From contig CAVRAL010000004.1 in the NCBI GenBank assembly GCA_963719085.1, positions 1,184,001-1,248,000 on the forward strand: a stretch of 64,000 nt of DNA, read 5' to 3'. This DNA is from a candidate division FCPU426 bacterium (GTDB lineage: Bacteria; Oederibacteriota; Muellerivitia; Muellerivitales; Muellerivitaceae). A program made the translations under genes and the position numbers. Positions 7,692 through 46,846 of the stretch are shown here, in pieces; positions within the stretch are counted from its first letter, which is position 1, and every line of letters starts with the position of its first letter. Below the pieces are notes generated by a model. That model saw only the letters and a list, made by a program, of their open reading frames with translations. It did no database searches and was not told the DNA's origin.

Positions 7692-7699
7692 GAAGTTTG

Positions 7700-9244: not shown

Positions 9245-9302
9245 GGGCCCATTTAACAGGAGCCGAGGGTCCGCTTCAACAGCGGAATGAGGGGTTTAAA
9301 AG

Positions 9303-9331
9303 AAAAGGCCGGGCGGACTTGCCCGGCCTTT
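9303..9331 (-). terminator. Intrinsic terminator after the RND gene
   Basis: AAAAGGCCGGGC-GGACTT-GCCCGGCCTTT hairpin. Confidence 0.7.
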
Positions 9332-9350
9332 GGATAAATCAGGATAAAAA

Positions 9351-12300: not shown

Positions 12301-12560
12301 CCCTGGGTACAGGTGCTTTGAACGTCCTGCACGCCTTCCACGCCCAAAACCGCCTGTTCCACCACGTCGGAGACGTCGGATTCCACGACCTCAGGGGCGG
12401 CGTTGGGCAAGGTGATGGAAACGTTTACGACAGGGAAATCCACATCGGGCATTTGGGCTAATCCCATCCGGCTGAAACAAATAAAACCGAATAAAAGCAG
12501 GGCGGCCATGAACATCCAGGCCATCACGGGGTTGCGGATGGAAATATCAGACAGGGTCAT
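9351..12560 (-). CDS. RND efflux transporter permease (AcrB/MdtB-like)
   Basis: 1069 aa; GVVVDDAIMVLENI and RFRPILMTS motifs. Confidence 0.95.
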   Translation of the reverse strand: MTLSDISIRNPVMAWMFMAALLLFGFICFSRMGLAQMPDVDFPVVNVSITLPNAAPEVVESDVSDVVEQAVLGVEGVQDVQSTCTQGQANITVFLDISRPVDAAVQDVQTLVASVQKQLPTNVYPAVIRKQNPNSSPIIWFAVTVDPPLTVKDMMLYTRDHIEDHFTSLPGVSNVFLGGFMNREVNIWVDNNKLNAHELTVQDLIDTIQHQHDEVPAGSMETPDVQYDIRSMGEAYTVPAFGDLPIITRGGAPNYGAARLKDVATIEDGIVSPTVRLSRFNGTTAVGLGIVMQDGYNAVEVADLAKQRMAEVQKQLPPGYHIAVNFDTTTFIKDNVHELELTIFLAALLTGLVCFLFLGSWTSTLNVFLAIPTSLFGTMMIIYFFGFTLNTFTLLALSLSIGVVVDDAIMVLENIVRHQEKGEHQVEAALKGAREVTFAAIATSIAIIAIFLPIAFMQGVIGKFFFQFGVTLSGAVLISLLEAITLTPMRCSEFVHSADEHSRFNHFVNTQFHRLTRFYTRVLGWSLGHRWLILITSLAIFAGSLFSFMLVKKEFVPVTDQSVFIVNLKLPVQSSLTHTDGIVKQCEAALKDRGEIKNLYSAVGGFGTSATNAAILFVTMKDPGARPVVDEELSQGKGKPKKKVHKRLTQMEFSQLLRAKLSKVSPDLQVSIQDLSQRGMSTGKGYAAEFIVTGPDWTVLSQSVQAIRAKLKDDSKLADVTDNFLDGQPEIRIIPDRAKAAAMGVNMDDLGNVVGSLIGGYTFQGIYFHEDGHDNPILLRVPDEQRLLPTDINHIYVRNNRGEVLPVSAVSSLAVTTSLQQITRDMRQPAVYFYANAGPGTSQAEALKEATDDAQSCLPTTGGYSVQLTGSSQTNSGAFSQLGIVMILGIIVAYMVLGSQFNSFIQPIVILLALPFSITGAFFALLITGQSFNMYSFIGIILLLGLVKKNSIMLVDFTNQRRRLDNMNVKDALMAACPIRFRPILMTSAATIAGAIPAALAFGPGAELRQGMSVAIIGGMFFSTILTLVVVPCAYSLMSNLERGDIHKFEFDEDGNLTTGNRKRRKSSA

Positions 12561-12593
12561 CGGGTCATCCTTCGGAGTTGATGTGCGGCACGG

Positions 12594-14015: not shown

Positions 14016-14054
14016 AATAGGCCAAACGGCTTGAGCAAAATAGCAACAGGCCTC

Positions 14055-14663
14055 TTAGGGTTTCAAGAGTCCTTGGGCGAAAACTTTGGAGAGCGACCGC
14101 GCGTACTCCTCGTCGCCTCCCTCAAACTTCATGCATCCGCCTAAAATTTTCTCGTCCATGGTGTAATTCATGATGGCGCCCACGAACTGAAAGGCCACCA
14201 GCTTCATGGCGTTGGGGGACATTTTCCCCTCGAGAAAAGGGCCCAGCACTTGTTTGATGTTCTGGTCCACCCGGTCCTGGATGTTTTCCATGTAGATTTT
14301 CTTCAGATAATTGTTTTTCAGGCTCTCCGACAGCAAAATCTTGGTGAACTCCACATTCTCATCCTTTTTCATCTGCTCCAGGAAACCCCGGGCGGTTTGA
14401 TAAAGGCATTCCTCCAAGGTGCGGGGGGTGCCCAGGCCTTGGACCAATTCCTCATCCTGCCGCCAACGCAACTCAAAGATGCCGTGCAGGATGGTTTCCT
14501 TGCTTTTGAAATAATGATAAAGCGTGGCCTTGGTCAGCCGGCAGGCCCGGGCGATTTGGGACATGCTGGTTTCTTTCACGCCTTTTTCCGAAAAAAGCTT
14601 CCGGGCTTCCGCCAAAATTTTAACCATCTGTTGCTGGTGTTTGTGGGGGTCGAGCACTTTCAT
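14055..14663 (-). CDS. TetR/AcrR family transcriptional regulator
   Basis: HTH motif TSMSQIARACRLTKATLYHYFKSKE. Confidence 0.93.
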   Translation of the reverse strand: MKVLDPHKHQQQMVKILAEARKLFSEKGVKETSMSQIARACRLTKATLYHYFKSKETILHGIFELRWRQDEELVQGLGTPRTLEECLYQTARGFLEQMKKDENVEFTKILLSESLKNNYLKKIYMENIQDRVDQNIKQVLGPFLEGKMSPNAMKLVAFQFVGAIMNYTMDEKILGGCMKFEGGDEEYARSLSKVFAQGLLKP

Positions 14664-14743
14664 AAGGCCATAAACCTACCCTGCGGTTGATTTTTTTTGT
14701 AAGGGCCCGTCATCCTTTTCATTCCTTCAAAAACCTTTCTTAC

Positions 14744-15187
14744 TTACTTAGCGGAGCAGGGGGCCGAATTCGGGCACGAGGCCGGCGGCATGTGATGGAA
14801 CAGGAACCAAAACCATCCCTCCAACCCCGGTTTCACGGGTGGATGATCGTGTTGCGCCTTTAAGGCGTCCAATTTTTTAATCTGTTCGGCGGACAAGAGC
14901 GGGCGAATCTTCGCGTCGATCTTGTCCCGGATGGCGCAGAACTTATCGCGGTCCAAGTCCCGTAATTTGTTAATGTCGGCGTCTTCGGTTTTGAGAATGG
15001 CCTCGACCTTGATTTTTTGGTCGGGAGTCAAGCTCAGTTCGCAGGCGAGGCGGTCCAAAACATGATGATGATCCCCGCTGTTGAGCCACATCCGGTTCAT
15101 GCAATGGCTGATGTAAAGCACGGTGATCATGGAGCCCACCAAAAGGCCGATGATGAAAATAAGGGAACCCTTGATCCAGTTTTTCAT
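14744..15187 (-). CDS. Membrane-anchored periplasmic helical protein (Spy/CpxP-like)
   Basis: N-terminal TM, ELSLTPDQ and LLSAEQ (LTxxQ-like) motifs; third gene of an ECF operon. Confidence 0.6.
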   Translation of the reverse strand: MKNWIKGSLIFIIGLLVGSMITVLYISHCMNRMWLNSGDHHHVLDRLACELSLTPDQKIKVEAILKTEDADINKLRDLDRDKFCAIRDKIDAKIRPLLSAEQIKKLDALKAQHDHPPVKPGLEGWFWFLFHHMPPASCPNSAPCSAK

Positions 15188-15188
15188 G

Positions 15189-15650
15189 TTATTGCCCCTC
15201 GTCGTAGCTGATGAGCGAAACCGTGAGGTTGCTCGAGGCCGGGAGAACCGGAGCCGCGACGGCGGTCGAGGCCACTTGGGATCCGCTTTCATTTAACAGC
15301 GAGGAATCCGAGGCCAAACCCGGAAGGTTGGGCAGAACGGCGGTCCAAACCCAGGCGGCGGCCGCGAAGGAGCCCACCAACGGCAGGGACCAGGGCATCA
15401 GGGATTTCCACAACGATTGTTCCCGATTGGGTTCCAGGCGGGCCATCACTTTTTGGGTGAAAAGATCCTCGCTCCATTCGGAGAATAAGGGCTTGGCGAA
15501 AAGGAAGCGCGAATGGGTCTGCCATTGACGAAGGGTTTGCCGGCAGGAGGGGCAGGCTTCCAGATGGCTTTCCACTTCCCAACGCTCGGGTTGGGGAAGC
15601 CTTTGGTCATAATAAGCCGAGAGCTTTTCGGCTAGTTTGGCGTGATTCAT
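15189..15650 (-). CDS. Zinc-finger (zf-HC2) anti-sigma factor
   Basis: LSAYYD..HLEACPSC motif plus one TM; overlaps the ECF sigma stop codon. Confidence 0.88.
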   Translation of the reverse strand: MNHAKLAEKLSAYYDQRLPQPERWEVESHLEACPSCRQTLRQWQTHSRFLFAKPLFSEWSEDLFTQKVMARLEPNREQSLWKSLMPWSLPLVGSFAAAAWVWTAVLPNLPGLASDSSLLNESGSQVASTAVAAPVLPASSNLTVSLISYDEGQ

Positions 15651-30486: not shown

Positions 30487-33400
30487 ATGGACCATTTTAA
30501 CGAAAAACTCCTGGACCAAATTCCGGAAGGTTTAGCGGCTTTCGATTTAGAAGGCCGGTTTATCTTTTGGAATAAAACCCTTCAAGCCTTGACCGGACTT
30601 GCCCCGTCGAGCGTTTTAGGCAAAAAGTTTTTTGAGCTTTTCCCCGACTTTAAAGTCAAAAACCAGGATTTCCACCTCCGGGAAGCCTTCGCCGGACGCT
30701 CGGCCCTGGCCCATCATTTTCCCTTCGGCGATATTCAGGATCCCCAACTTTTCTTCGAGACATTTTACGGCCCCTTAAAAAACGAGGCCGGTCAGGTGAC
30801 CGGCGCGGTGGCGCTGGCGCGCGACCTGTCAGAGCGCATGAAAGAACTGCGCCTTTTGGAAGACCGGGAAAAGAGGCTTCGGCAATTTTTTGAGATCGCC
30901 GAGGAAGCCATCATGGTCCACGAACAGGGCGTGATCCGGGACGTGAACCCGGCCTTGGCGCGTATGCTGGGTTATGGGCCCGAGGAGATGATCGGCCGTC
31001 CCGTTTCCGATTTTTCCGATCCCGTCTCAGCCAAAAAGACCCAAACCTATCTGGCGGTGGGCTACCCGGAGGGCACTTATGAGTACTTGGCCAAACGCAA
31101 GGACGGAACCACCTTTCCCATGGAGGTCCGGGGCCGGGATTTTGAGATCGGGGGAAAAACCTTGCGGGTTTCCACGGGATGGGACATTACTTACCGTAAA
31201 AAAATAGAGCGGGCGATCCAAGAAAGCGAGGAGCGCTTCAAACGATTCGCGGAGATCACCCGGGAAGGCATCCTGTTCCACAAAGACGGGAAAATCCTGG
31301 ACGCTAACCAAACTTTGCTCGACTTGACCGGTCGAACGGCGTCCGAAGTGGTCGACAAGAACAATTTAGACTTCATGACCGAGGAATCGATCGAGAAAGT
31401 CCGCCGGTTCCGAGGCGAAGGTTATCCGATACACCCTTACGAGGTGACCCTGCGCCACAAAGACGGGACCTTGATTCCCGCGGAAGCCTTGGGCCGTTAT
31501 TTCACGCTCGACGGGGAACAAGCCCGGGTGGTCAGCGTTTGGGACATCCGGGACCGTAAAAAAGCCGAGGACGCCTTGCGCCAGTCCGAGGAAAAGTTCC
31601 GCAGCCTCATCGAGAATTCACTCGACATGCATTCGCTGATTGACGCCGGTGGCCGGGTGATTTACGACAGCCCCTCGGTCCAAAAGGTCATGGGGTTTCC
31701 GCCGGAAGAAAGGCTGGGCCGCGATTATTTGAGGCATGTGCATCCGGAGGACAAGCCGCGAATCGCGGAATTGATCGGGGAGACGTTGAAAGCGCCCGGA
31801 ATGACCGTGGCCGCCGAGTTCCGGGCCCTGCGCGCGGACGGCCAGTGGCATTTGATGGAAGGCTCGGCCACCAACCTGCTCGATCATCCGTCGGTGAAAG
31901 GCATTGTGGCCAACTTCCGCGACATCACGGAGCGAAAGGCCGCCGAGGAGGCCCTGCGCAAGTCGGAGGCCAAGTTCCGCAGCTTGATCGAGAATTCCTA
32001 TGACCTCATCACGGTCCTGGACCGGGAGGGCAAACGAATCTACGAGAGCCCTTCGCTCGAGCGGATATTGGGCTATAAACCCGGGGAGCGCCAGGGCTTG
32101 ACCTTCGATACCCAGCCCCCGGAAGACCGTGAAAAAGGACAAGCGATCTTCCGGGAGGCGCTGGCTAATCCCGGAAAACCCATTCAAGCGCAATTGAAAG
32201 CCCTGCGCAAAGACGGCACCACCATCGACGGGGACATGGTTCTCACCAACCTTCTGGATGACCCGGCTGTGGGGGGCGTGGTGGTCAATGGGCGCGACGT
32301 GACCGAGCGAAAACTGGCCGAGGAGGCGCTAAAGCAATCCGAACAAAACTTCAGGACCCTCATTGAGAGGGCGCCGGAGGCTATTTTCGTCCATGAGGGC
32401 TTGAAGATCCTTTACGCCAATCCCCGGCTGGTGGAGCTGTTGGAATACCAAAATCAGGAGCAACTATTGGGAAGCGCGCCTTTGACCCATATCCGTTCCG
32501 AGGACCGGGAAAAAATCCGATCCCGCATTGAGCGGGCCCAATCGGGACTGCAAAATCCCCCATTGGAAATACGGGTTTTATGCCGAGACGGAAGCGAAAA
32601 GATCGTGGAAACGGTCAGCGTGGGGGTTTTGTTCGAGGGCCGGGCGGCCACCATGGTGATGCTCCGGGACCTGACCGAGCAGAAAAAAGCCCAGGAAAAG
32701 ATAAGGCAGCAGGATGATTTTTACCGCGCGCTTTTGGAAAACACCCATGACATGATCACCGTGGTGGGGCCGGACGGCCGCAGTCTTTATTTGGGCCCCG
32801 GCATCCAAAAGGTTTTGGGTTACAGCGTGGAAGAGCGGCTGGGAAAGAACGCCTTTGAGTTCATCCATCCGGACGACCTGGCCTGGGCCCGGGAAGCCTT
32901 CGCGAAATTGGCCCAAACGCCCGCTGAGGAGCTGGTGCCCTTCACCCTGCGCATGCGCCACAAGGATGGAAATTGGCGGCGGGTGGCCGGGGTGGCGCAA
33001 AATCTCCTCGCCCATCCGCTGGTCAAGGGAACGCTGATCAATTACCGCGATGTCACGGAGCAAGAGGCGGCTGAGGAGGCCCGGCGCCAGTCCGAGGAGA
33101 AGTTCCGCAGCCTCATCGAGAATTCCCACGACGTCATCTCGGTCACCGAAAAAGACGGATTGATGAGTTATATCAGCCCCTCGGTCAAGCATGTGCTGGG
33201 TTATGAGCCCGCGGAGCGCATCGGCCAAGGCTACATCCATATCATGCACCCCGAGGACATGGAATATGTCCGGAAGGAATTTTCGAAGCTGCTCCAAACC
33301 CAGGGTGTGGCTTGGACTTTGGAATTTAGGCTGCGCCACAAGGACGGTTCTTGGAGGCAGGTCGAGTCCACCGGCATCAACCTGCTGGAAAACCCCTCGG

Positions 33401-34503
33401 TGCGGGGAATTGTCTATAACCTCCGGGATGTGACCGAGAAAAAGCTGGCCGAGGAAGCCAAGCGCCAATCCGAAGAGCGGTTCCGCCGCTTCGCCGAGGT
33501 CACCCAGGAAGGCATTTTGATCCATGACCAGGGCGTCGCGCTGGACGCCAACCAGGTTTTCGCCGACATGGTGGGATTGCCCCTGTCCAAAATCGTCGGC
33601 CAATCCAGCTTTGAGTTCATGGACGAGGAGTCCCGCCTGCGGATCGAGGGCTATCAGCGCGACGGCTATCCGCCGACTTACGAGGTTCGGGTGAAACGCA
33701 AGGACGGCACGACTTTCCCGGCCGAAGTCCACGGCCGCCACTTCCAATGGGAAGGACGGGACGTGCGGGTGATCAGTTTGTTCGACATCACGGAGCGAAA
33801 AAACACCGAGCAAGTCCTGCTCAAATTAGAGCGGCTTTCCACCATCGGCGAGATGGCCGCCGGCATGGCCCATGAGATCCGAAACCCCCTGGCCGCCATC
33901 TCCATGGCCGCCCAGCTCATGAAACGAAAAAAAGTGGAAGGCGTGGAGACTTTCCTTCAAACCATCCTGGAACAAAGCGCGCGGCTCGAGCAGTAGGTCA
34001 AGGACACCTTGGATTACGCCCGAATTGAGAAGGGGACCGCCGTTCCCAGCCTTTCGCTTAAAACCGCGCTGGAAAGCGCCCTGAGGCTCAGCCAAATCCA
34101 GATCGGCCCCAGCCAGGAAAAGGTCCGGGTGGAATGGGAAGCGGTGCCGGGCGGTTACCTGGCCCGGGCCCAGTCCCAGCGCGTCCAGCAGATTTTCATC
34201 AACTTAATTTTAAACGCGTACCAGGCCATGCCCGAAGGCGGGCGGTTGACGCTGGGTCTCGCCGAGGAGGGCGAAAAGGTTTTGGTCCGGATCGCCGACA
34301 CCGGGCCCGGTTTGCCGAAAAAAGATTTGCAGAGGCTCTTTGAGCCGTTCTTCACCACCAAAGGAACGGGTTCGGGGTTGGGATTGGCCGTCAGCCAGCG
34401 TATCGCCGCCCAATATGGCGGCCGGATCACCGCCGATCGGTTAAAACCCCATGGAATGGCCTTCACCTTGGAACTACCCCGCGCCGAAGGGAGCCCCGCT
34501 TGA
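30487..34503 (+). pseudogene. Cytoplasmic nine-PAS sensor histidine kinase interrupted by an in-frame TAG at 33994-33996
   Basis: Nine PAS/PAC repeats and H-box AHEIRNPL; the frame continues past the stop (RLEQ*VKDTLDYAR) into N, G1, F and G2 boxes (NLILNAYQA, DTGPG, FEPFFTTK, GSGLGL). Confidence 0.8.
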
Positions 34504-36758: not shown

Positions 36759-37247
36759 ATGCCGTCCTATGTTCCCGCTCCTTTGGAGCCCCAGGAATTC
36801 CCCAAGTCCGAGCTCCGGGCGGTCCTGGAATCCATGCGGTTGGTGATGAACTCCTGGGCCTATCTGGCGCCCTTTGACATCGGGTTTCCCGCCGAAGGCC
36901 CCACTTTTTTGAATTTGGAAAAATCGGTTCATTTTACCGGCCGGGCCCGGGGAATCCTCAATGTGCGCACCACGCCCGAACTGGGCGCGCTTTTGGCCGA
37001 GTACACCCAAGGGGAACCCGGAACACCCGAAGCGGCCGATGACGCTTTCCGGGAGTTCGTGAATATTTACTGCGGCCATCTGATGACTTTTCTTTGGGGC
37101 CAGGAAAACGCCGCCTTTGATCCCTACCTGCCCGTGGATTCCACGCCCGCCCAATGGCCCTCGGCTTCCCCTTCGGCGGCTTGCTGTTTTTTAGTGGGGG
37201 ACGCGCCGGTCGAGGTGAGGCTCTGGGTCGAACGGGAGGTCTTTTGA
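36759..37247 (+). CDS. cheX: CheX-like chemotaxis phosphatase
   Basis: VHFTG..G..DDAFREFVNIYCGHL with the E-x-x-N motif; stop overlaps the cheA start. Confidence 0.7.
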   Translation: MPSYVPAPLEPQEFPKSELRAVLESMRLVMNSWAYLAPFDIGFPAEGPTFLNLEKSVHFTGRARGILNVRTTPELGALLAEYTQGEPGTPEAADDAFREFVNIYCGHLMTFLWGQENAAFDPYLPVDSTPAQWPSASPSAACCFLVGDAPVEVRLWVEREVF

Positions 37248-39235
37248 TGGCCTCGGCCCCTGAAAAGCAATTGAACGGTTTGGCGCTGGAGCTGTCCCTT
37301 TTGGGGGCGCGGCTGCTCGCGCCCAAACCGCTTTCCACGGTGGAGACCTCGGCGTTGGCCGGGGACTTTTTGGCCTGGAGTGAAAAGGCCGCGGCTTGGG
37401 TGGGCGCTTGGGGGCGGGAAACCTTGGTTTTGGCCCGCAAGATCGTGGCGGGATTGAGCGCGGGACGCCCGGCGGAAAAGGCCCGGGAGCGTTTATCCGC
37501 GGCCTTGAGCGAGGCTTCGGAAAAGCTGGAAATGGAATCGATCCTGCCCCAAGGCGGCGAAGGCGTAAGCCAAACCCCTTCGGCGGCCTCAGGCCCGGCG
37601 GAGGATGGTTTTTTCAATATCCCTTCGGACGATCTGGCCGGATTCAAAGATTTTGTCGGTGAGGCGCCCGAGCATGTGCAGGTCATTGAAACCGGATTAT
37701 TGGCCCTTTCCCAAACCGGCGTGACCGACATCCTGCCGGTCTATCGGGGTTTTCACACCCTCAAGGGCATTTCGGCCTTTATGGGACTTTCCCAATTGTC
37801 GGCCTTGGCCCACCAGGCGGAGGCGATCCTGGAGCCTTTCAAAAACAGCGGGGGCCGTCCCACCGAAGACCAAGTGGATTGGCTGCTGCAGGCCTGCGAC
37901 CTCATCCGCGAGCAGGTGCAAGCCGTGGTCCAGGGATTGCCCGCGGGCCGGTTCCGGATTGTTTTTCACGACCAGGCCCCTCTGGCGCAAAGCCGCGCGG
38001 CCGCCGCCGCGCCGGCGGGACTCAAGGCCGTTGAAAACGCCGATCCGGCCGCCGCTTCGTCCTCCGCCGATCTTTCCATGCGCGTCCAAGTGGAAAAGAT
38101 CGACGCGCTTTTAGAAATCGTCGGCGAACTGGCCATTTGCCAGGCCCAGGTTTCCGCGGGGGTCGAGGCCGTCGGTGTGTCCAGCCACCTGGCTTCCGAG
38201 TCCTCAAGGCTTGGCAAAATTTGCCGCCAGCTCCAGCAGCTGGTCCTTTCCATCCGCATGGTGCCGGTCCAGCCCTTGTTTCTTCGCATGTCCCGGCTGG
38301 CCCGGGACCTTTCGCGAAAAACCGGCAAGCCCCTAAGGCTGGCATTGGAAGGCGGCGAGACCGAGATCGACCGCCGGCTGGTGGAATCCCTGGCCGAGCC
38401 CTTGGTGCACCTCATCCGCAACGCCGTGGACCACGGCTTGGAAAAAACGGAGGAGCGTCTGAAAGCCGGCAAGCCGCAAGAGGCGGTTTTGACCCTCTCG
38501 GCCCGGCACCAAAGCGGTGATTTCATCCTGGAACTTTCCGACGACGGCCGGGGACTGAATTACGAAAAGCTGGCCTTCAAAGCGCGCCAGGCCGGATGGC
38601 TGGCCGAAGGCGAGGCCCCCACGCGGGAGAAATTGACCGAGTTTATTTTCCGCCCCGGTTTTTCCACCGCGGAGACCGTGACCGAGGTCTCGGGGCGCGG
38701 CGTGGGACTGGACGCGGTGCGGCGGAAGATTCAGTCGCTCAAGGGGTCTTTGGCGGTCGAGAGCGAGCCGGGCCAAGGCACGAAATTTCGCCTGCGCATT
38801 CCCCGGACGCTTTTGCTCATGGAGGGAATCTTGGTGCGGATGGGCTCGGAGCGCTACGTGTTGCCCGCCTCCCAAGTGATGGGATTTCTGGCGCTGGACG
38901 GGACCCAAACCCACGCGGTGGGCGAGGGACGCTCCTGGCTGGACACGGACCAAGGGCAATTGCTCTTGATCGATTTGGAAGAGGATTTTGGAAGCCGGGT
39001 CGACGGCAAGACCCGGTCCCTGGCCGTGCAGGTCGAGGTGGACGGGCGCCGGGCCTGCCTGGTGGTGGATGAGGTGCTGGGCAAGCAGCAGGTGGTTCTG
39101 AAGGAACTGGGCGAAAGCCTGCATGACCTGAAGGGCGTCCTGGGCGGGGCCATCTTGGGGGAAGGAAGAGTCGGGCTCATCCTGGATATGGAATGGCTGG
39201 TTCGGATGATGAGCGGGGCGTCGTCGAGAAATTAG
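37247..39235 (+). CDS. cheA: Chemotaxis histidine kinase
   Basis: HPt YRGFHTLKG, HLIRNAVDHG, DDGRG, SGRGVGLD and a C-terminal CheW-like domain. Confidence 0.96.
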   Translation: MASAPEKQLNGLALELSLLGARLLAPKPLSTVETSALAGDFLAWSEKAAAWVGAWGRETLVLARKIVAGLSAGRPAEKARERLSAALSEASEKLEMESILPQGGEGVSQTPSAASGPAEDGFFNIPSDDLAGFKDFVGEAPEHVQVIETGLLALSQTGVTDILPVYRGFHTLKGISAFMGLSQLSALAHQAEAILEPFKNSGGRPTEDQVDWLLQACDLIREQVQAVVQGLPAGRFRIVFHDQAPLAQSRAAAAAPAGLKAVENADPAAASSSADLSMRVQVEKIDALLEIVGELAICQAQVSAGVEAVGVSSHLASESSRLGKICRQLQQLVLSIRMVPVQPLFLRMSRLARDLSRKTGKPLRLALEGGETEIDRRLVESLAEPLVHLIRNAVDHGLEKTEERLKAGKPQEAVLTLSARHQSGDFILELSDDGRGLNYEKLAFKARQAGWLAEGEAPTREKLTEFIFRPGFSTAETVTEVSGRGVGLDAVRRKIQSLKGSLAVESEPGQGTKFRLRIPRTLLLMEGILVRMGSERYVLPASQVMGFLALDGTQTHAVGEGRSWLDTDQGQLLLIDLEEDFGSRVDGKTRSLAVQVEVDGRRACLVVDEVLGKQQVVLKELGESLHDLKGVLGGAILGEGRVGLILDMEWLVRMMSGASSRN

Positions 39236-39255
39236 CCGAAAGCGGGGATGTGCGT

Positions 39256-39359
39256 TTGAGAAGCCAAGTCCGCTAAGAACGCGTTGGAGTCCGGAAAAAC
39301 ACCCAGCCTCACCTTGGGGTTCAACGCTTTTGGTGTTCTTGGCGGATTTGGAGTCTCAA
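39256..39359. repeat. Long imperfect intergenic hairpin between cheA and the TonB-dependent receptor
   Basis: TTGAGAAGCCAAGTCCGCTAAGAAC pairs with GTTCTTGGCGGATTTGGAGTCTCAA; inner GCGTTGGA/TTCAACGC. Confidence 0.65.
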
Positions 39360-39397
39360 GCGGTCAAAAAAAGTAGTTCAAACTTAAGGAGGCAGTC

Positions 39398-41557
39398 ATG
39401 AAGGTTCGAGGATTCAGGATGGGCGTGACGCTGGTTTTGGCCGGCGCGCTTTGTTTAGGGTCGGTTCAGGCGCAGGACGCCGCTCCGGCGGCCGCGGCCA
39501 ACGGCGGTCATGATTTGACGGCGGTCAGTTTAGAAAGCCTGATGGGCTTGAACGTGGTGGTCACTTCGGCGTCCAAAAAAGCCGAGTCTTTGCGGGACGC
39601 GACCTCCGCTATTTTCGTCATCACCCAGGACGACATCCGCCACAGCGGGTTCAAGACCATTCCGGACCTTTTGTCCATGGTGCCCGGGGTGCAGGTGGCG
39701 CGGCAATCGGGGGATGAGTGGGCCGTGAGCGCGCGCGGGTTCAACAGCAATTACAACAACAAGATGCTGGTGCTGGTGGACGGACGCAGCGTGTACGATC
39801 CGGTTTTGGGCGGCGTCAACTGGGACGAGCAGGGCGTGATCCTGGAAGACATCGACCATATCGAGGTCATCCGCGGACCCGGCGGGACCCTCTGGGGATC
39901 CAACGCGGTCAACGGCGTCATCAACATCATCACCAAGGACGCCAAACTGACCCAGGGCCTTTATGTCTCGGCCCTGGGCGGCGCCAATCTTTATAAAAAC
40001 GGCGTCTCCTCCCCGACGGCCCTGAACGGCCAAGGCGAGGCGCGCTACGGCGGCCAATTGGGCGGCGACCTTTATTACCGGGTCTACGGCAAAGCCGATA
40101 ACCAGAACCCCTTCGAGAACCCGGATCAGGGAACCGCGGAACAGGCGCTGAACGGCCCCTGGCATGACGGTTCCTACGATTTCCAGGCGGGTTTCCGCGG
40201 CGACCTGCACCAGGACAGCGACCAATGGACCTTCGAGGGCGCGGCCGAGCAAGGTCATTTCGACTATACCCGGTTGAACACGACCGCCAGCCCTATTTTC
40301 GATCCGATCACCTTCACCAATGTCAACGACATCAACACCGACATCGACCAGAACGCCCATTTGCTGGCGGGCTGGACCAAGGATTTCAACGACGACTCCG
40401 AAATCCAGGCGCAAGGCTATTACGACTTCAACCACCTCACGACCTCCAACGACGATCGCTTAAGCGACGTGGGCCAGGCCGACCTCCAGTTCCAGCACCG
40501 GTTCCATTTGGGGGATGTCAACGAGATCACCTGGGGCGGCAGCTGGCACAACGACACGGTGCGGTTCGCCAATCCGTTGAACTGGTATTACGTCCCGCAA
40601 AACCAAACCGTCAACATCTACTCGGGATTCCTGCAGGACCGGTTGACCCTGGAACGGGACCGCTGGAGCCTGACGGTCGGCACCAAGCTGGAGAACAACC
40701 CCTACACGGGGAACGAGTGGCAGCCTTCCGCCCGATTGCTCTTCACCCCCAACGAGAAGGACAGCTTCTGGGGCGCGGTGTCGAAGGCGGTCCGCATTCC
40801 GACCCTCAGCGCGGAGACCGGTTATGTCTACCTGGCGGGAGTTCCGGCCGGTACTTTCGGCCCCGGCTCCCCGGCGGAAAACACCTATGGCGCCCTGGTC
40901 CCCAATCCGGACCTGAAGGCGGAAAACCTGGTGTCCTACGAATTGGGCTACCGCACGAACCCGACCAAGGAAACCTCGATCGACCTGGCTTCCTTCTATA
41001 ACCACTATGAGCAATTGATCAACATCCCGATCGTGCCGGGAAGCTTTTCCTCGCCCGCGGGCGGGGTCATCTCCGAGGGCGGCTACGGCTTGCCGGTTTT
41101 GCAGGAACAGAACACCGGCACGGGCGATATTTGGGGCTTGGAACTGAGCGCCACCTGGAACCCTTCGGCCCAATGGCGCGCGGCCTTGTCCTACAGCTAT
41201 CAGGACTATGACCAAGCCATGATCCAGGCTTCCAGCACCAATCTGGGGGGGCCGCCGCCGCACAACTTGGCGAGCCTGCGCTTGGCCTACACGCCGGTGA
41301 CGGGACTTTCCTTCAACGGGGAGATTTATTACACCGACGCGACTTTCTTGTACGACTTGAGCACGGACGACGGCAGCATCACGCCCGACTATGTGCGCCT
41401 CAACCTGGGCGCGGACTGGAAAGCCACCGACAACCTGGAACTGGCCTTGGAAGGCCTGGATTTGGAAGGGGCCCACTCGGAAACCCTGCAAGCCTACGGC
41501 ATCTCGCCGGTTCAAGTGGTGCCGAGCTTTTACGCCCAAGCCACGCTTCGCTACTAA
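39398..41557 (+). CDS. TonB-dependent outer membrane receptor
   Basis: Signal peptide, plug motifs LVLVDGRSVY and IDHIEVIRGPGGTLWGSNAVNGVINIITK, beta-barrel ending in Y. Confidence 0.93.
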   Translation: MKVRGFRMGVTLVLAGALCLGSVQAQDAAPAAAANGGHDLTAVSLESLMGLNVVVTSASKKAESLRDATSAIFVITQDDIRHSGFKTIPDLLSMVPGVQVARQSGDEWAVSARGFNSNYNNKMLVLVDGRSVYDPVLGGVNWDEQGVILEDIDHIEVIRGPGGTLWGSNAVNGVINIITKDAKLTQGLYVSALGGANLYKNGVSSPTALNGQGEARYGGQLGGDLYYRVYGKADNQNPFENPDQGTAEQALNGPWHDGSYDFQAGFRGDLHQDSDQWTFEGAAEQGHFDYTRLNTTASPIFDPITFTNVNDINTDIDQNAHLLAGWTKDFNDDSEIQAQGYYDFNHLTTSNDDRLSDVGQADLQFQHRFHLGDVNEITWGGSWHNDTVRFANPLNWYYVPQNQTVNIYSGFLQDRLTLERDRWSLTVGTKLENNPYTGNEWQPSARLLFTPNEKDSFWGAVSKAVRIPTLSAETGYVYLAGVPAGTFGPGSPAENTYGALVPNPDLKAENLVSYELGYRTNPTKETSIDLASFYNHYEQLINIPIVPGSFSSPAGGVISEGGYGLPVLQEQNTGTGDIWGLELSATWNPSAQWRAALSYSYQDYDQAMIQASSTNLGGPPPHNLASLRLAYTPVTGLSFNGEIYYTDATFLYDLSTDDGSITPDYVRLNLGADWKATDNLELALEGLDLEGAHSETLQAYGISPVQVVPSFYAQATLRY

Positions 41558-41581
41558 TGCCGAACGGTCAAGGAGACCTTT

Positions 41582-42133
41582 ATGAAAAAGTTTAAACGCG
41601 TTCTTCTTCTGAGCTTGATGGGCCTGGCCTGGCCGGTGTTCGGACAGGGAGTGTCCGAATACACGGTCAAGGCCGCCTATCTTTACAACTTCGCCCAGTT
41701 CGTGGACTGGCCCAAGGGCGCCTTCGGGGGCGACGCCGCCCCCCTGGTGATCGGCATCGTGGGCGACGACCCTTTCGGATCCTCGCTGGATGACGCCGTC
41801 AGCGGCAAAACCGCCGGCGGCCACCCGCTGTCGGTGAGGCGCCTGGGGGCTTTTGACCCGGCCAAAGCCGCGGGGCTGGGCCGCTGCCAGATGCTTTTTA
41901 TTTCTTACTCCGAAAAGGACCACCTGCGGGACATCCTGCAGGCCCTTTCGGGCGCGAAGACGCTCACGGTCTCGGAGATCGACCGGTTTCCCATGAAGGG
42001 CGGCATGATCCAGTTCGACCAAGTGGGCGACAAGATCACCCTGGACGTGAACCCCACGGCCGCCAAACACGCGGGGCTTTCCCTGCGCGCGCAGCTGCTT
42101 CAGGTTTCCAAAATACAAGACTCGGAGGAATAG
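41582..42133 (+). CDS. YfiR family (DUF4154) periplasmic protein
   Basis: Signal peptide, EYTVKAAYLYNFAQFVDWP, CQMLFIS, GGMIQF and GLSLRAQLL motifs. Confidence 0.9.
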   Translation: MKKFKRVLLLSLMGLAWPVFGQGVSEYTVKAAYLYNFAQFVDWPKGAFGGDAAPLVIGIVGDDPFGSSLDDAVSGKTAGGHPLSVRRLGAFDPAKAAGLGRCQMLFISYSEKDHLRDILQALSGAKTLTVSEIDRFPMKGGMIQFDQVGDKITLDVNPTAAKHAGLSLRAQLLQVSKIQDSEE

Positions 42134-42135
42134 CC

Positions 42136-43650
42136 ATGAGGTTCGTTCATTTCAAGGGATTTTCCCTCCGGGACAAAATCATCTGGATCACGGGACTCTC
42201 GACCACCGTCTCGCTTTTGCTGGCCTGCCTGGTGCTGGCCCTGAACGAGCGGATGTCGTACCCGAAAATTATGGCGGGACACTTGGGTGAGCTGGCCCAG
42301 GTGATCGGGGACAACAGCACGGCGGCCTTGAGCTTCAACGACGCCAAGACCGCGCAAACCTTGCTGGAGACCCTCAAGGGCAACCCCCATATCGTCTCGG
42401 CGCTGCTTTATGACGCGCAGGGAAAAATTTTCGCCCAGTATTCGCAAGACTCGGCCGCGCCCCTGCCGGTTTCGGCGGTCACCGCCCAGCCCCAGGGCTG
42501 GTCGCTTTCGGGCGGGTCGCTGGCGCTTTACCAGGACATCAACCTGGGCGGGCAAAAGGTCGGGACGGTGCGCCTGCAATCGGACCTCAAGGAAATGAGC
42601 GCCCGCATGGCCGCTTACAGCCTGGTGACCTTGGCGGTCTTGGTCTTGTCCGTCTTTGTTTCTTTCTTAACCTCCGCCACGCTTCAAAGGCAGGTGTCGG
42701 ACCCCTTAAGGACGGTCATTGAGGGGTTGAACGACAGCGCCCAGCAAATGACCGCCAGCTCCGGGCAAATTTCCACCGCCAGCCAACAGCTGGCCGAGGG
42801 AGCGTCGGAGTCGGCCAGCAGTTTGGAAGAAACCATCTCGTCCTTGGAAGAGATGGCTTCCATGACCCGGCAAAACGCCGAGAGCGCCGGACGGGCTAAA
42901 AGGCTGATGGAGGAGACCCAATCCACGGTCTCCCGGGGCAACCAATGCGTTTCGGAGACCCTCGGTGCGATGCAAGAAATGAACGACAGCGCCCAAAAGG
43001 TCGCCAAAATTTTGAAGACGATCGAGGAGATCGCCTTCCAAACCAACCTGTTATCCCTCAACGCGGCCGTGGAAGCGGCCCGCGCCGGGGAGCAGGGGAG
43101 GGGTTTCGCCGTGGTGGCCGAGGAAGTGAGGAGCCTGGCCCAGCGCAGCTCCGCCGCGGCCAAGGACACCGCCAATCTGATCGAGGAAAACGCCCGCCGC
43201 GCGGCCCAAGGCCTCAAGGTCAGCGACGAGGCGGGACGGGCCCTGACCCAAATCGTGGATCAGTCCAAGAAGGTGTCGGGCCTCATTGAGGAGATCGCGG
43301 TGGCCAGCGAGGAACAATCCCGGGGCATCCAAGAAATCAACGGCGCCGTGGCCCAGATGGACAAGGTCACCCAGCGCAACAGCGCCAATTCGGAGGAATT
43401 GTCCTCCTTCAGCGAGGAAATGTCGGGCCAATCCAAGGGGCTTAAAGAAATGGTCGGCGGACTATTGCAAGTCTTGAACGGCGTCAAAGCCGGCCTCGCG
43501 CCCGAGCCCTTCGCCGCGGCGCCGGCGCCGATAGCAAGTGTTCCGGCCAAACCAGCCGCCGCCCCGGCGTCGTCGCGCCGGGAAGCGCGCGTCAAGCGCG
43601 CCCCGGAGCGGGTGGTGGCCTTGAGCGCCGAGGAATTACGGAACTTTTAA
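42136..43650 (+). CDS. Methyl-accepting chemotaxis protein with a CHASE8 (YfiN-type) periplasmic domain
   Basis: Two TMs flank NSTAALSFNDAKTAQTLLETL..IVSALLYDAQGKIFAQY; hairpin [34 protein letters not shown]; tail ends ELRNF. Confidence 0.9.
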   Translation: MRFVHFKGFSLRDKIIWITGLSTTVSLLLACLVLALNERMSYPKIMAGHLGELAQVIGDNSTAALSFNDAKTAQTLLETLKGNPHIVSALLYDAQGKIFAQYSQDSAAPLPVSAVTAQPQGWSLSGGSLALYQDINLGGQKVGTVRLQSDLKEMSARMAAYSLVTLAVLVLSVFVSFLTSATLQRQVSDPLRTVIEGLNDSAQQMTASSGQISTASQQLAEGASESASSLEETISSLEEMASMTRQNAESAGRAKRLMEETQSTVSRGNQCVSETLGAMQEMNDSAQKVAKILKTIEEIAFQTNLLSLNAAVEAARAGEQGRGFAVVAEEVRSLAQRSSAAAKDTANLIEENARRAAQGLKVSDEAGRALTQIVDQSKKVSGLIEEIAVASEEQSRGIQEINGAVAQMDKVTQRNSANSEELSSFSEEMSGQSKGLKEMVGGLLQVLNGVKAGLAPEPFAAAPAPIASVPAKPAAAPASSRREARVKRAPERVVALSAEELRNF

Positions 43651-43663
43651 CCTGGAACAAAGA

Positions 43664-44173
43664 ATGGAGAAGGCAATGACCGATCAAAAGGGTGAGGACA
43701 AGTACCTGACCTTCGCCGTGGGCCGGGAAGAGTACGGCGTGGAAATCCTCAGGGTGAAAGAAATCGTCGGGCTCTTGGATATCACGGCGGTCCCCATGAC
43801 CACCACCCATATCCGGGGGGTCATCAACTTAAGGGGGAAGATCATCCCGGTCTTGGACCTGCGGCACAAGCTGGGGCTTCCGCCGGCCGCGAGCGCCAAG
43901 GAAAACTGCATCGTGATCGTTTCGGTTTCGGGCCGCCAGGGCGAGAGCCCGGTGGGCCTGTTGGTGGACAGCGTGAACGAGGTCTTTAAGGAGGCGGACG
44001 CGCAAAAAGAGCCCCTGCCCGAGGTGGGGGAAGGCAAGAGCCTGGATTTCGTGAAGGGGCTGGCCAAGGTCAAAGGGCGGCTGGTGATTTTGCTCGATGT
44101 GGAAAAAACCGTCCTGCGGGAAGAGCTCGAGGGCTTGGAAGAACTTGAAAATTTGGCGAAGGCGGGCCGGTAA
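43664..44173 (+). CDS. cheW: Chemotaxis coupling protein
   Basis: YLTF..EEYGV..GVINLRGKIIPVLDL..GLLVDSV. Confidence 0.95.
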   Translation: MEKAMTDQKGEDKYLTFAVGREEYGVEILRVKEIVGLLDITAVPMTTTHIRGVINLRGKIIPVLDLRHKLGLPPAASAKENCIVIVSVSGRQGESPVGLLVDSVNEVFKEADAQKEPLPEVGEGKSLDFVKGLAKVKGRLVILLDVEKTVLREELEGLEELENLAKAGR

Positions 44174-44175
44174 GG

Positions 44176-45012
44176 ATGGAAACCATGACAGTCAAGGAAA
44201 TGCGGTTGGCGGAGTTTGAGAAGCTGGCGCGGCTGGTCTATGAGCAAAGCGGCATCAAGCTGGAGCTTCCCAAACGGGATCTTTTACAGGCGCGCCTGCG
44301 CAAACGGCTGAAGGCCCTGGGCTTAAGCGGGTTTAAGGATTATTTAAAGTTCGTGGCCCAGGATTCGACCGGCGGGGAAGTCATCCAGATGATGGATTGC
44401 GTGACGACGAACAAGACCGAGTTTTTCAGGGAAGGGCGCCATTTCGAGCATTTGGCCGAACAAGCCTTGCCGGCTTTGCTTCAGCGCCCGGACCGCCGGG
44501 AAGAGCCCTTGCGGCTTTGGAGCGCGGCTTGTTCCACGGGCGAGGAAGTTTACAGCCTGGCCATGACCGCCCTGGAAAGGGTGGGCGGGACCCGGGTGGT
44601 GAAGGTTTTGGGCACCGACCTGTCCACCCAGGTCCTTCAAAAGGCCTTGGAAGGGCGCTATGACGCCGACAAAACCCGGGGCGTGCCGGAAGCCTGGCGG
44701 GTGAAGTATTTCATCCAAGAAGAAGCCGAGGGCCGGTGGGTCGACCGCGCCGGGCATCTGCTAAAGCGGGTGACGCGTTTTTCCCGGCTCAACTTGAACG
44801 GCGGGGATTACGCGTTCCGCGCGCCGTTTGACGTGATCTTTTGCCGCAACGTGATGATTTATTTTGACGCGGCCGTCCAGCAAAAGCTGGTGGACCGCTT
44901 GACGGGCTGTTTAAAGCGGGGCGGCTATCTTTATACCGGCCTCTCCGAAAGCCTGCTTCGGGTCAAGCATGGGCTCGTCAATATCGGACCGTCGATTTAT
45001 CAAAAACCATGA
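44176..45012 (+). CDS. cheR: Chemoreceptor methyltransferase
   Basis: TTNKTEFFRE, WSAACSTGEEVYS and FDVIFCRNVMIYFD motifs. Confidence 0.96.
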   Translation: METMTVKEMRLAEFEKLARLVYEQSGIKLELPKRDLLQARLRKRLKALGLSGFKDYLKFVAQDSTGGEVIQMMDCVTTNKTEFFREGRHFEHLAEQALPALLQRPDRREEPLRLWSAACSTGEEVYSLAMTALERVGGTRVVKVLGTDLSTQVLQKALEGRYDADKTRGVPEAWRVKYFIQEEAEGRWVDRAGHLLKRVTRFSRLNLNGGDYAFRAPFDVIFCRNVMIYFDAAVQQKLVDRLTGCLKRGGYLYTGLSESLLRVKHGLVNIGPSIYQKP

Positions 45013-45026
45013 AGCGGGAGATTTTA

Positions 45027-45512
45027 ATGACGACGGACCAGAAGGTCATCGTGGGCGTGGGCGACTATTGGGTGACGAATGACCGGGCCAAGACCCTGGT
45101 GACTTATTCGCTCGGGTCTTGCGTGGGCGTGACGGCTTTTGACCCCCAGGCGGGGGTCGGGGGGATTTTGCACTTTAAGCTTCCCCACTCCGAGCTCAAT
45201 CCCCGCATGGCGGCCGACAAGCCGGGGGTTTTTGGCGACACGGGATTGAAGGCTTTTTTGGAGGAGCTTTTCGGGCAGGGTGCCACCCGGCCCCAATTGG
45301 AAATCAAACTGGCGGGCGGGGCCCAGTCCCTGGGGACCGGTTCCTTCAATATCGGCCAGCGCAATTTGCTGCTCGCCCGGCGGTTTTTATGGATGAACGG
45401 CCTATTGGTTTCCCGCGAGGACACCGGCGGGCATGACTACCGCACCTTGCGTTTGGAAATGGCCACGGGGCGGGTTTTGCTGCAGGACCCGAGGGGCGCT
45501 TACGAGCTGTAA
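45027..45512 (+). CDS. cheD: Chemoreceptor glutamine deamidase
   Basis: TYSLGSCVGV..GILHFKLP, KLAGGA and IGQRN motifs. Confidence 0.93.
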   Translation: MTTDQKVIVGVGDYWVTNDRAKTLVTYSLGSCVGVTAFDPQAGVGGILHFKLPHSELNPRMAADKPGVFGDTGLKAFLEELFGQGATRPQLEIKLAGGAQSLGTGSFNIGQRNLLLARRFLWMNGLLVSREDTGGHDYRTLRLEMATGRVLLQDPRGAYEL

Positions 45513-45666
45513 CAGAAGGGTGAGAAAGTCCCGAAACCGGACTTTCTCATATTAGCCAACGAGCCGCGAGGCGAAATGAGGCGGCGCGTTTTAGCCCGGG
45601 GCTGTTTCGGGGCGGTTTCAAGATTTTTCGGGCGCCCCGTGATTTTTTAAAAATGAGGAGGATGGA

Positions 45667-46062
45667 ATGGCTTTTAATTTCTTGATCGTGGATGACTCGA
45701 CGACCAGCCGGGGCATCATCAAAAAAACGCTGAAACTGACCCGGCTGCCCCTGGGCGATATTTGGGAAGCGGCCAACGGCCGGGAAGGCCTGGACCAGAT
45801 GCGCTCCAACTGGGTGGACCTGGTTTTGGCGGACCTGAACATGCCCGACATGACGGGCCAGGAAATGATCGAGGCCATGGGCCAAGATCCCCTGCTTTCC
45901 AAGCTGCAAGTGGTGGTGGTGAGCTCGGAAGGGAACCAAGCGGTGCTGGACTCGCTCTTTAAAAAAGGAGTCCGGCAGGTGGTGCGCAAGCCCTTCGAGC
46001 CGGCCTTGCTTCGGGACGTGATTGAGAAGGCGCTCCAAATTAAATCCGAGAGCCAAGACTAA
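45667..46062 (+). CDS. cheY: CheY-like single-domain response regulator
   Basis: IVDDS..LADLNMPDMTG..VSS..KPF. Confidence 0.85.
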   Translation: MAFNFLIVDDSTTSRGIIKKTLKLTRLPLGDIWEAANGREGLDQMRSNWVDLVLADLNMPDMTGQEMIEAMGQDPLLSKLQVVVVSSEGNQAVLDSLFKKGVRQVVRKPFEPALLRDVIEKALQIKSESQD

Positions 46063-46075
46063 AAAGGGGGAGAGG

Positions 46076-46846
46076 ATGACGAACACACAGCTCAAAAACG
46101 TGCTTTTGATCGACGGGGCCGCGATGTCCCGGAAACTTTTGGCGGTACGCCTGCAGTCCATCGACTTGAACCCGGTGGAAGCCGCCAACGCGGCGGAGCT
46201 TCACAAGTTGACCGGACCCGGCCGTTCGTTTGATTTGGTCGTGACCGAGCAGACTTTGGAGGGAATGGAAAGGCCGGAGTTGCTTCAGAAATTAAGGGAC
46301 TTGGGATGCCCCGTCCTTATCTTTACCGACCAACCGGTGACCGAGGCCCAAGAAAAGCCTTCTTATATAAGGGGAGTCTTTCACAAGAGCCAGCGCAATG
46401 ACCTGCTGAAGGCCGTGGTGGTGGCCCTGGGCGCTGTGCCCGCCCGTGAAATGAAGGAAGTGGAACGCCATATCCTGGTGATCGAGGATTCGCCCACCAT
46501 CCGCAATTTCCTGCGGCGCATTTTAGAGAAAAGTTTCCCCGGCAGCGTGATCCGGGAAGCCTCCGACGGACGGGAAGCCCTGTCCGAGATGTCGAATAAA
46601 AAGGTCGATTTTATCCTCACGGACCTTCAGATGCCGGGCATGGACGGCCACGCTTTTTTAAAGATGCTGCATTCCAATCCCATCCTCAAGCACAAGCCCG
46701 TGGTGGTGCTGTCCTCTTCCATCACGTCCGAACTGCGCGAGCAGGTGAAAGGCTTTGAGAAGGTGCGGCTTTTGGCCAAGCCCTCCTCGGCCGAGGAAAT
46801 TTCAAAAACCCTGGGCGAACTGATGGTCTTGTCGACGGCGGTTTAA
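46076..46846 (+). CDS. Tandem receiver protein (degenerate REC plus canonical REC)
   Basis: First domain LIDG..VVTEQ has Glu at the phospho-Asp position; second has VIEDS..LTDLQMPGMDG..KP. Confidence 0.8.
   Translation: MTNTQLKNVLLIDGAAMSRKLLAVRLQSIDLNPVEAANAAELHKLTGPGRSFDLVVTEQTLEGMERPELLQKLRDLGCPVLIFTDQPVTEAQEKPSYIRGVFHKSQRNDLLKAVVVALGAVPAREMKEVERHILVIEDSPTIRNFLRRILEKSFPGSVIREASDGREALSEMSNKKVDFILTDLQMPGMDGHAFLKMLHSNPILKHKPVVVLSSSITSELREQVKGFEKVRLLAKPSSAEEISKTLGELMVLSTAV

Follow-up and report, generated by a model that had tools for sequence, protein, structure and literature searches.

A TonB-dependent receptor, a YfiR-like protein and a CHASE8 chemoreceptor encoded in one chemotaxis cluster: a rare chemotaxis-output version of a widespread cassette

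The 64,000-nucleotide stretch of DNA analyzed here (the window; contig CAVRAL010000004.1, positions 1,184,001 to 1,248,000, of a candidate division FCPU426 bacterium) contains, at positions 36759-46846, a chemotaxis (che) gene cluster in which a TonB-dependent receptor (TBDR), a periplasmic YfiR-like protein and a methyl-accepting chemotaxis protein (MCP) with a periplasmic CHASE8 domain are encoded between cheA and cheW. The trio belongs to a widespread, catalogued cassette that usually signals to histidine kinases, and is a rare variant of it with a chemotaxis output. The reach of chemoreceptors is thought to end at what arrives in the periplasm; if a TBDR were wired to an MCP by way of a small periplasmic adaptor, large or scarce molecules captured on the cell surface would also come within the range of chemosensing, which would moreover be coupled through TonB to the proton-motive force. 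We put the probability that the trio is the chemotaxis-output member of the TBDR/YfiR-like/CHASE8 cassette and relays a surface event to CheA in this way at about 0.55.

The open reading frames (ORFs) of the window and the Pfam domain calls made on them agreed with the first-pass annotation, which had described a TBDR, a YfiR-family gene and an MCP between cheA and cheW with gaps of 24 and 2 nt. The TBDR gene (39398-41557; Plug 9.2e-22, barrel 2.3e-32) lies on the plus strand, as do all genes of the cluster given here, and is followed by the gene for the periplasmic YfiR-like protein (41582-42133; DUF4154, "YfiR/HmsC-like", 1.2e-41) and that for the CHASE8 chemoreceptor (42136-43650; CHASE8 4.7e-19 over residues 50-147, MCPsignal 1.6e-47). 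The DUF4154, CHASE8 and Plug assignments made earlier were thus borne out by the hidden Markov model (HMM) scan. Between the last base of the TBDR stop (41557) and the yfiR ATG (41582) there were 24 nt, with AAGGAG in front of the ATG, and between the end of the yfiR stop (42133) and the MCP ATG (42136) there were 2 nt, again with a Shine-Dalgarno-like sequence in front. The TBDR and the YfiR-like protein read as carrying Sec-type signal peptides, and hydropathy placed the membrane helices of the MCP at residues 14-38 and 155-184, with a periplasmic domain of about 116 residues between them. The MCP transmitter is MCPsignal, and no HAMP, GGDEF, HisKA or HATPase_c domain was found in the MCP by Pfam. 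Its flanks are cheA, cheW and cheR, in a synteny shared with the related loci L039, L040, L041 and L056. Because the cassette is embedded in a che cluster that encodes the CheA-CheW array, its output must be that array.

The TBDR-YfiR-MCP gene order is far above chance, since the same order was found again in relatives and across phyla. In the window's own genome (assembly of 3.04 Mb in 5 contigs, 99% complete), exactly three DUF4154 and three CHASE8 matches were present, pairwise adjacent, with a TBDR before each pair. These cassettes account for 2 of the 3 CheA loci, 2 of the 6 MCPs, 3 of the 7 TBDRs and all three YfiR and all three CHASE8 genes; the genome also has 5 TonB_C genes. The second copy lies in another che cluster (L008, G000:C1:1112000-1128000) with CheA, TBDR, YfiR, CHASE8-HAMP-MCP, CheB, CheR and CheX, and in the third cassette (L007, G000:C4:536000-552000) the sensor is a CHASE8-HAMP-PAS histidine kinase of 993 residues. 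A single ORF of 701 residues (7492-9597, minus strand) spans YfiR and the CHASE8-HAMP-MCP in L008. We considered a natural ("Rosetta-stone") fusion and rejected it, as a single extra base lies 13 codons before the yfiR stop; the ORF was not counted as a fusion because the normal C-terminus and stop were seen in the +1 frame, and because the transmembrane helix TM1 is kept, which would invert the topology. The database protein P0057 has a similar look, with frameshift-like stretches at the YfiR-MCP junction and at the C-terminus.

Relatives in the window's family (f1) were sought with the first 200 residues of the MCP as the query, and their genes were annotated by BLASTP with the window proteins. 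Matches were present in 22 of the 24 other f1 genomes, and the best 14 outside the window's genome were fetched as loci. Three (L039, L040 and L041) carried TBDR-YfiR-CHASE8-MCP within che clusters syntenic with that of the window. Ten carried a TBDR, YfiR and a CHASE8 kinase of 467-470 residues followed by a receiver gene, the TBDR being split into two ORFs in one of them and cut by a contig end in another. The remaining one (L051, genome G002) was an orthologous che cluster with the CHASE8-MCP present and without TBDR and yfiR. In 10 of a further 14 weaker f1 matches, available as short loci only, a long CHASE8 kinase was preceded by a TBDR and YfiR. Inside che clusters, the gene order was conserved in L039, L040, L041 and L056 and in the genome's own second copy.

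Beyond the family, one genome per species was scanned with an alignment of 16 YfiR-like proteins. A YfiR-like relative was encoded at no fewer than 537 loci, of which the best 80 were kept and annotated with local phmmer probes; these span Verrucomicrobiota, Acidobacteriota, Bacteroidota, Pseudomonadota, Gemmatimonadota, Planctomycetota and others. A CHASE8 gene lay directly downstream of yfiR in 76 of the 80, and the other four comprised one locus cut by a contig end, two with the CHASE8 kinase before the TBDR and one (L094) without CHASE8. Seven of the 80 were cut upstream of yfiR, leaving 73 evaluable for the TBDR, which was found directly upstream and on the same strand in 61. The TBDR-YfiR-CHASE8 arrangement is a very widespread cassette, conserved as a unit. 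In L094, from a Chthoniobacter metagenome-assembled genome (MAG), the YfiR-like gene lies between a CHASE3-HAMP-MCP and four tandem TBDRs (1562-15279); genes for CheR-TPR and CheW accompany the MCP, and all four TBDRs carry the N-terminal peptide discussed below or a variant of it.

The output of the cassette is what sets the window cluster apart. The 76 downstream CHASE8 genes of the survey comprised 68 kinases, 1 intact MCP, 3 CHASE8-only ORFs and 4 cut by contig ends. The intact MCP is that of L056, a relative of the window's family, and is also in a che cluster. In a Phycisphaerales MAG (L113, Planctomycetota), a TBDR, YfiR and a CHASE8-HAMP ORF overlapped by an MCPsignal ORF were found at 6575-12934; this is an independent MCP cassette broken by a frameshift or an assembly error. 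A second MCP follows it. MCP output was rare, with one intact and one frameshifted case among the 76. The 55 word-index matches to the CHASE8 module included 8 with an MCP domain, 3 with GGDEF-EAL and 44 that were kinase-type or truncated, and among the best 150 of 10,381 representatives an MCP domain was present in 4. No cyclase was seen directly downstream of yfiR in the 80-locus sample. The first-pass annotation had mentioned receptor-YfiR-CHASE8 triads with kinase or cyclase outputs: the kinases were found, in 68 of 76 loci, and the cyclases were not seen directly downstream in that sample. NCBIfam has models for the trio with a kinase, NF053590 (TBDR), NF053591 (YfiR-like) and NF053592 (sensor histidine kinase, YfiR-like protein-associated). 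These NCBIfam families are the same three as in the window and in the same order; of the window proteins, the YfiR-like one scores above its cut-off, and the TBDR and sensor below theirs. The catalogued sensor is a histidine kinase, whereas in the window it is an MCP within a che operon.

A maximum-likelihood tree of 102 CHASE8 modules (quick search, with support by the Shimodaira-Hasegawa-like approximate likelihood-ratio test, SH-aLRT, only; two loci were left out as duplicates of contigs already included) placed all f1 modules, MCP and kinase, in one clade with support of 100. Within it, 8 MCPs, the window's among them, formed one clade (support 90) and 11 kinases another (support 87). The MCP of L113, from Phycisphaerales, was placed among Verrucomicrobiota kinases, and the L007 kinase cassette of the window's genome fell in a distant clade. 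The minimum number of kinase/MCP changes on the tree was 3, at least 2 of which were forced by well-supported branches. The MCP output thus arose at least twice, and the output was swapped repeatedly on a constant TBDR-YfiR-CHASE8 input.

The closest characterized system to the YfiR-CHASE8 part is YfiBNR (TpbB/DgcN; HmsCDE) of Pseudomonas aeruginosa, E. coli and Yersinia, in which, in the published text available (PMC3375315, PMC4655355, PMC4887326), a DUF4154 protein is likewise encoded beside a CHASE8 sensor, the sensor has an A-A-x-x-F patch and the operon includes a gene for an outer-membrane partner. That partner is the Pal/OmpA-like lipoprotein YfiB, whereas here it is a 22-strand TBDR; the output there is a GGDEF cyclase and here an MCP feeding CheA; and the order is yfiR-yfiN-yfiB there, compared with outer-membrane partner, YfiR and sensor here. 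No OmpA-like gene that would correspond to YfiB was found in the cluster, the rest of the genome not having been searched for YfiB. YfiR-insensitive mutations of YfiN map to the AAVVF patch, which has been proposed as the YfiR site (PMC3375315). Residues A63-A64-L65-S66-F67 of the window MCP (the AALSF patch, 42322-42336) align with AAVVF of E. coli DgcN. The patch, as (A/G)-(A/S)-L-x-F, was kept in all cassette-linked sequences aligned, with A63, L65 and F67 nearly invariant, and the N-terminal 196 residues of the MCP scored 48.7 bits against the DgcN/YfiN model. A link between YfiR and CHASE8 is thus supported, at the level of sequence, by the conserved YfiR-binding patch of YfiN. As in YfiR-YfiN, the YfiR-like protein would probably bind the membrane-distal N-terminal CHASE8 helix at the AALSF patch and set the signaling state of the receptor. 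A search of PDB sequences with the CHASE8 module returned no relevant solved relative.

At the position of the patch, the orphan MCP of L051 (G002:C4:761000-780900; MCP at 9500-11029) reads ADLEV. Of the 16 columns without variation in the other 21 sequences, it differs at 5, more than any other of the 22. Because L051 is nested within the MCP clade, on a long branch, its TBDR and yfiR were lost secondarily; the single yfiR of genome G002 is at a kinase cassette elsewhere. Loss of the patch in a receptor that has lost its YfiR is, in this single case, what a YfiR-CHASE8 contact would predict. Another locus (L023, G016:C53) holds a CHASE8-MCP gene truncated after about 81 residues (1438-1794, minus strand) with the AALSF patch kept; the fragment adjoins another MCP, the sequence downstream is unrelated, and the locus is uninformative.

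The YfiR-like protein passed the cut-off of NF053591 (TOL_0243 family YfiR-like periplasmic protein; 142.9 bits, cut-off 125). Its AlphaFold2 model had a mean predicted local distance difference test (pLDDT) of 89.5, and the best Foldseek matches of the model were P. aeruginosa YfiR chains (E ~1e-7, target-normalised TM 0.72-0.80). The model confirmed the predicted YfiR fold. The columns invariant in the 16 YfiR-like proteins lie in helix 1, the loop after helix 1 and the C-terminal part, and in P. aeruginosa YfiR it is these regions that make up the surface to which partners bind (PMC4655355).

The TBDR has the plug, the 22-strand barrel and the TonB-box-like strand of its class, and its AlphaFold2 model was a confident plug and barrel (pLDDT 85.5; predicted template modeling score, pTM, 0.87). 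A pre-TonB-box peptide and the TonB-box-like strand occupy residues 39-61 (DLTAVSLESLMGLNVVVTSASKK, 39512-39580), detected with a motif HMM, some 13 residues after the signal peptide. The segment DLTAVSLESLM, which had earlier been singled out as a candidate contact site at the receptor's N-terminus, is present at residues 39-49, within this conserved motif, and NVVVTS of the TBDR lines up, by eye, with the TonB-box regions of the genome's other TBDRs. The genome's three cassette TBDRs share DL-x3-SLE-x-L-x-GL-x-V-x-VTS-x-x-KK, and the other four have ordinary TonB-box regions. When the motif HMM was run on all ORFs of the genome, it recovered the three YfiR-linked TBDRs only (E 9e-15 to 5e-9; next E 2.7). 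A 30-residue query covering the peptide gave 9 matches in five genomes, 8 of them about 2.3 kb upstream of yfiR on the same contig; the ninth was on a contig without a yfiR match. Across 59 cassette TBDRs from many phyla, L48 was kept in 59, V55 in 58, T56 in 54, S57 in 54 and K/R60 in 59, the usual form being approximately D-L-K-x-L-S-L-E-E-L-M-N-x-E-V-T-S-V-S-K. Where a cassette contains tandem TBDR copies (two to four), each keeps the peptide or a variant. In the TBDR model, residues 16-49 had pLDDT below 50; a single helical turn was modeled at 45-48 and a short strand at 54-56. A conserved peptide that is predicted to be flexible is typical of a docking motif.

Relay of a surface event by a TBDR through a periplasmic element N-terminal to the TonB box is known from FecA-FecR-FecI. 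TBDRs of the FecA type have an STN domain for this, whereas the window TBDR had no Pfam match to STN at E up to 0.01 and has only a peptide of about 12-15 residues; the anti-sigma/extracytoplasmic function (ECF) sigma pair of the FecA type is likewise lacking here, and the signal would be passed to a soluble protein of the periplasm. In YfiB, an extended N-terminal loop (residues 44-58) anchors F48, W55 and F57 in pockets of YfiR (PMC4887326). By analogy, the TBDR might control the amount of free YfiR-like protein by direct contact through the conserved flexible pre-TonB-box peptide, a step to which we give somewhat less than even odds. The peptide would become available on ligand loading or TonB energizing, and the surface event would thereby be relayed to CheA. 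The first-pass annotation had given the receptor the part of YfiB, which sequesters YfiR, and had proposed a ligand that could stay outside the cell; both points are hypotheses.

A comparison with TBDRs linked to PF04392 proteins, taken as a proxy for the PahS receptor discussed below, covered 151 genomes of one class, in which 45 PF04392 places were found in 35 genomes and 40 were fetched. A TBDR lay directly upstream in 9 of the 40, the ninth being cut at its N-terminus. All 8 complete PF04392-linked TBDRs (L159, L161, L163, L164, L169, L170, L172 and L173) carried a different peptide at the same position, approximately E-D-F-L-x-E-M-P-V-V-L-S-A-T-R-L. Each class of periplasmic partner accordingly goes with its own pre-TonB-box peptide, which fits partner-specific docking and is no proof of it. 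At L146 (G113:C153:1-4000), the contig end removes the N-terminus of a TBDR that closely resembles that of the window (5e-107), and the gene after this TBDR encodes a PF04392 protein and not a YfiR-like one. A sharper version of the relay, which is tentative and in our view rather doubtful, would make the peptide (approximately D-L-K-x-L-S-L-E-E-L-M) a YfiR capture switch: a surface ligand would expose the peptide, YfiR would leave AALSF and CheA activity would change. If true, this would be a third kind of TonB-receptor surface signaling beside FecA-FecR and PahS-PahP, it would allow a chemosensory array to respond to molecules unable to cross the outer membrane, and each partner class (YfiR-like and PF04392 proteins) would be addressed by its own peptide.

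Several findings, given in this and the next three paragraphs, weigh against the relay. The best NCBIfam match of the TBDR, NF053590 (TOL_0244 family), reached 466.7 bits, below the cut-off of 645, and the best match of the N-terminal 196 residues of the MCP, NF053592, reached 141.8 bits (residues 10-196), below the cut-off of 194; the Pfam CHASE8 match of the MCP exceeds its own cut-off. The YfiR-like protein scored 19.9 bits against NF053586, the NCBIfam "sequestration protein YfiR", below the cut-off of 85, and is only remotely related to P. aeruginosa YfiR by sequence (phmmer E 0.016). Neither cysteine pair of YfiR is present in it: P137 and Q144 stand at the positions of Cys145 and Cys152, and C102 alone is retained. 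The Cys145-Cys152 pair stabilizes P. aeruginosa YfiR (PMC4655355). The L051 receptor is one case only, and the TBDR peptide might just as well be there for a dedicated TonB or for gating of the plug as for YfiR.

The TBDR was also not always where the relay would have it. Of the 12 evaluable survey loci without an adjacent co-directional TBDR, 7 had one elsewhere in the locus and 5 had none within 9 kb, indicating that YfiR-CHASE8 can work without a TBDR. These five loci, together with the common occurrence of YfiN-YfiR pairs without an outer-membrane partner (PMC3375315), would suit a self-contained sensor (e.g., of redox state or envelope stress) made up of the YfiR-like protein and the CHASE8 MCP, with the TBDR as a co-transcribed nutrient transporter. 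We consider this unlikely, as a TBDR stood directly upstream and co-directional in 61 of the 73 loci, from many phyla, and belongs to a subfamily with a private N-terminal peptide that in this genome is found only beside yfiR. The TBDR and yfiR were lost together in G002, the window cluster contains no ABC importer or other uptake genes alongside the TBDR, and the cysteine pairs by which YfiR would sense redox state are absent.

In the main alternative, which is possible if on the whole improbable, the TBDR instead imports a small ligand, which is bound by the YfiR-like protein (half a type I binding-protein fold) or by CHASE8; the loaded protein would then dock on the chemoreceptor as a co-receptor, making YfiR a ligand-carrying activator and not a sequestered repressor. 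Maltose-binding protein acting with Tar would be one analogue. Import is plausible because the TBDR kept a TonB-box-like strand and the full plug and barrel. Ligand hand-over, the periplasmic protein being an activator, is also how the only characterized TBDR-periplasmic protein-kinase system found operates: in Cycloclasticus sp. P1, PahS-PahP-PahK/PahR senses polycyclic aromatic hydrocarbons at the cell surface, as described by Wang et al. (2023; PMC10570129) in the text available. PahS bound PahP directly (dissociation constant, KD, 9.2e-8 M; two-hybrid; Förster resonance energy transfer, FRET), the ligand passed from PahS to PahP, and the ligand enhanced PahP-PahK binding (PMC10570129). The Pah proteins are likewise encoded in an operon of a TBDR, a periplasmic protein and an inner-membrane sensor, but PahP is a two-lobe binding protein of 318 residues, compared with the 183-residue YfiR-like protein here, and PahK has a kinase output and, according to its authors, no periplasmic sensor domain, compared with the CHASE8 MCP (PMC10570129). 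The YfiR-like model also resembled substrate-binding proteins in Foldseek, and P. aeruginosa YfiR weakly binds small molecules in the pocket that takes F57 of YfiB (PMC4887326). The reported affinities of those ligands were, however, in the ten-millimolar range (PMC4887326), and the YfiR-like protein is a single lobe without a two-lobe cleft. The conserved AALSF patch and YfiR surface point instead to a standing protein-protein contact, as in YfiN-YfiR, and import alone would leave the cassette-specific peptide outside the barrel unexplained.

The window cluster is also without two genes of its relatives. L039, L040 and L056 have cheB after cheY and an extra cheW between cheA and the TBDR, and neither is present in the window cluster. 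These absences, the in-frame TAG in a neighboring kinase and the frameshifts in the L008 yfiR and in the kinase beside the L007 cassette might be taken to mean that the cassette in the window is degenerating and out of use, which we regard as very unlikely. The TBDR, yfiR and MCP are all intact and have Shine-Dalgarno sites, none of the 11 columns that do not vary in the other sequences is altered in the window MCP, and near-identical proteins (97% identity over the N-terminal 200 residues) were present in other samples; the breaks elsewhere may be assembly errors. The stretches compared for the cheW and cheB differences were 39236-39397 and 45513-46062. A CheB homologue was seen in this genome only at L008, no genome search for the CheB family having been made.

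Modularity of the YfiR-dependent sensors was described by Malone et al. (2012), who in the text available called YfiR-YfiN[PAS] a modular core and noted that MCP domains replace GGDEF in divergent YfiN homologues (PMC3375315). The word "TonB" is absent from the main text of that article. Full-text literature searches found no paper on the NCBIfam trio or on TBDR-YfiR cassettes, and no characterized YfiR-controlled chemoreceptor. The possible novelty of the window trio, which the first-pass annotation had left to a literature check, was upheld in that no characterized chemoreceptor version was found in the literature searched, and reduced in that MCP outputs had already been mentioned (PMC3375315). 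PahS-PahP-PahK was the only experimental precedent found for a three-tier relay; a relay of this kind has thus already been published, the adaptor there belonging to another family (Wang et al. 2023; PMC10570129). For the underlying cassette, with its at least 537 loci in many phyla, family models exist and no experiment was found in the literature. With the che-cluster version, signaling by the whole class could conveniently be read out as CheA activity or by FRET in a chimera, and the AALSF patch, the orphan L051 receptor and the partner-specific peptides offer precise and cheap mutations.

The remaining genes of the cluster are those of a chemosensory system. The first (36759-37247) encodes a small CheX-like protein, its match to Pfam CheX being weak (20.8 bits; cut-off 27), homologues of which lie directly 5' of cheA in L039, L041, L051 and L056. 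CheA (37247-39235) has Hpt, H-kinase_dim, HATPase_c and CheW domains; its longest ORF runs from 37154, and the ATG at 37247 is the likely start, relatives aligning from about residue 32 on. This ATG overlaps the stop of the preceding ORF by one base (TGATG), with GGGAGG upstream. Downstream of the MCP are CheW (43664-44173; 6.2e-35), the CheR methyltransferase (44176-45012; CheR 8.5e-53, CheR_N), CheD (45009-45512; 4.5e-24) and a CheY-like single receiver (REC; 45667-46062; Response_reg 5.3e-21) with 70-84% identity to homologues in L039, L040 and L051. A REC-REC protein with two Response_reg stretches (46022-46846) closes the cluster; its true start is probably downstream of the TTG at 46022, and the protein is kept in L039, L040, L051 and L056. 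A promoter and terminator scan of the cluster gave counts no higher than in shuffled sequence.

Elsewhere in the genome, FliG was present (C1:509951-510271) and the Pfam Flagellin_N model had no match in the 99% complete assembly. The argument that the absence of flagella implies a non-motility output was dropped, as Flagellin_N was not found yet FliG was present. Beside the L007 cassette, a REC-PAS kinase carries a frameshift between HisKA and HATPase_c (about 2760-2830, minus strand). Upstream of the window cluster (30487-34503), a 1169-residue multi-PAS histidine kinase stops at an in-frame TAG (33994-33996) inside HisKA, and its HATPase_c is encoded by the ORF after it (34009-34503), without a change of frame; the TAG may be a nonsense mutation, an assembly error or a read-through site. 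Because three signaling genes are broken in one highly contiguous assembly, these breaks suggest indel errors.

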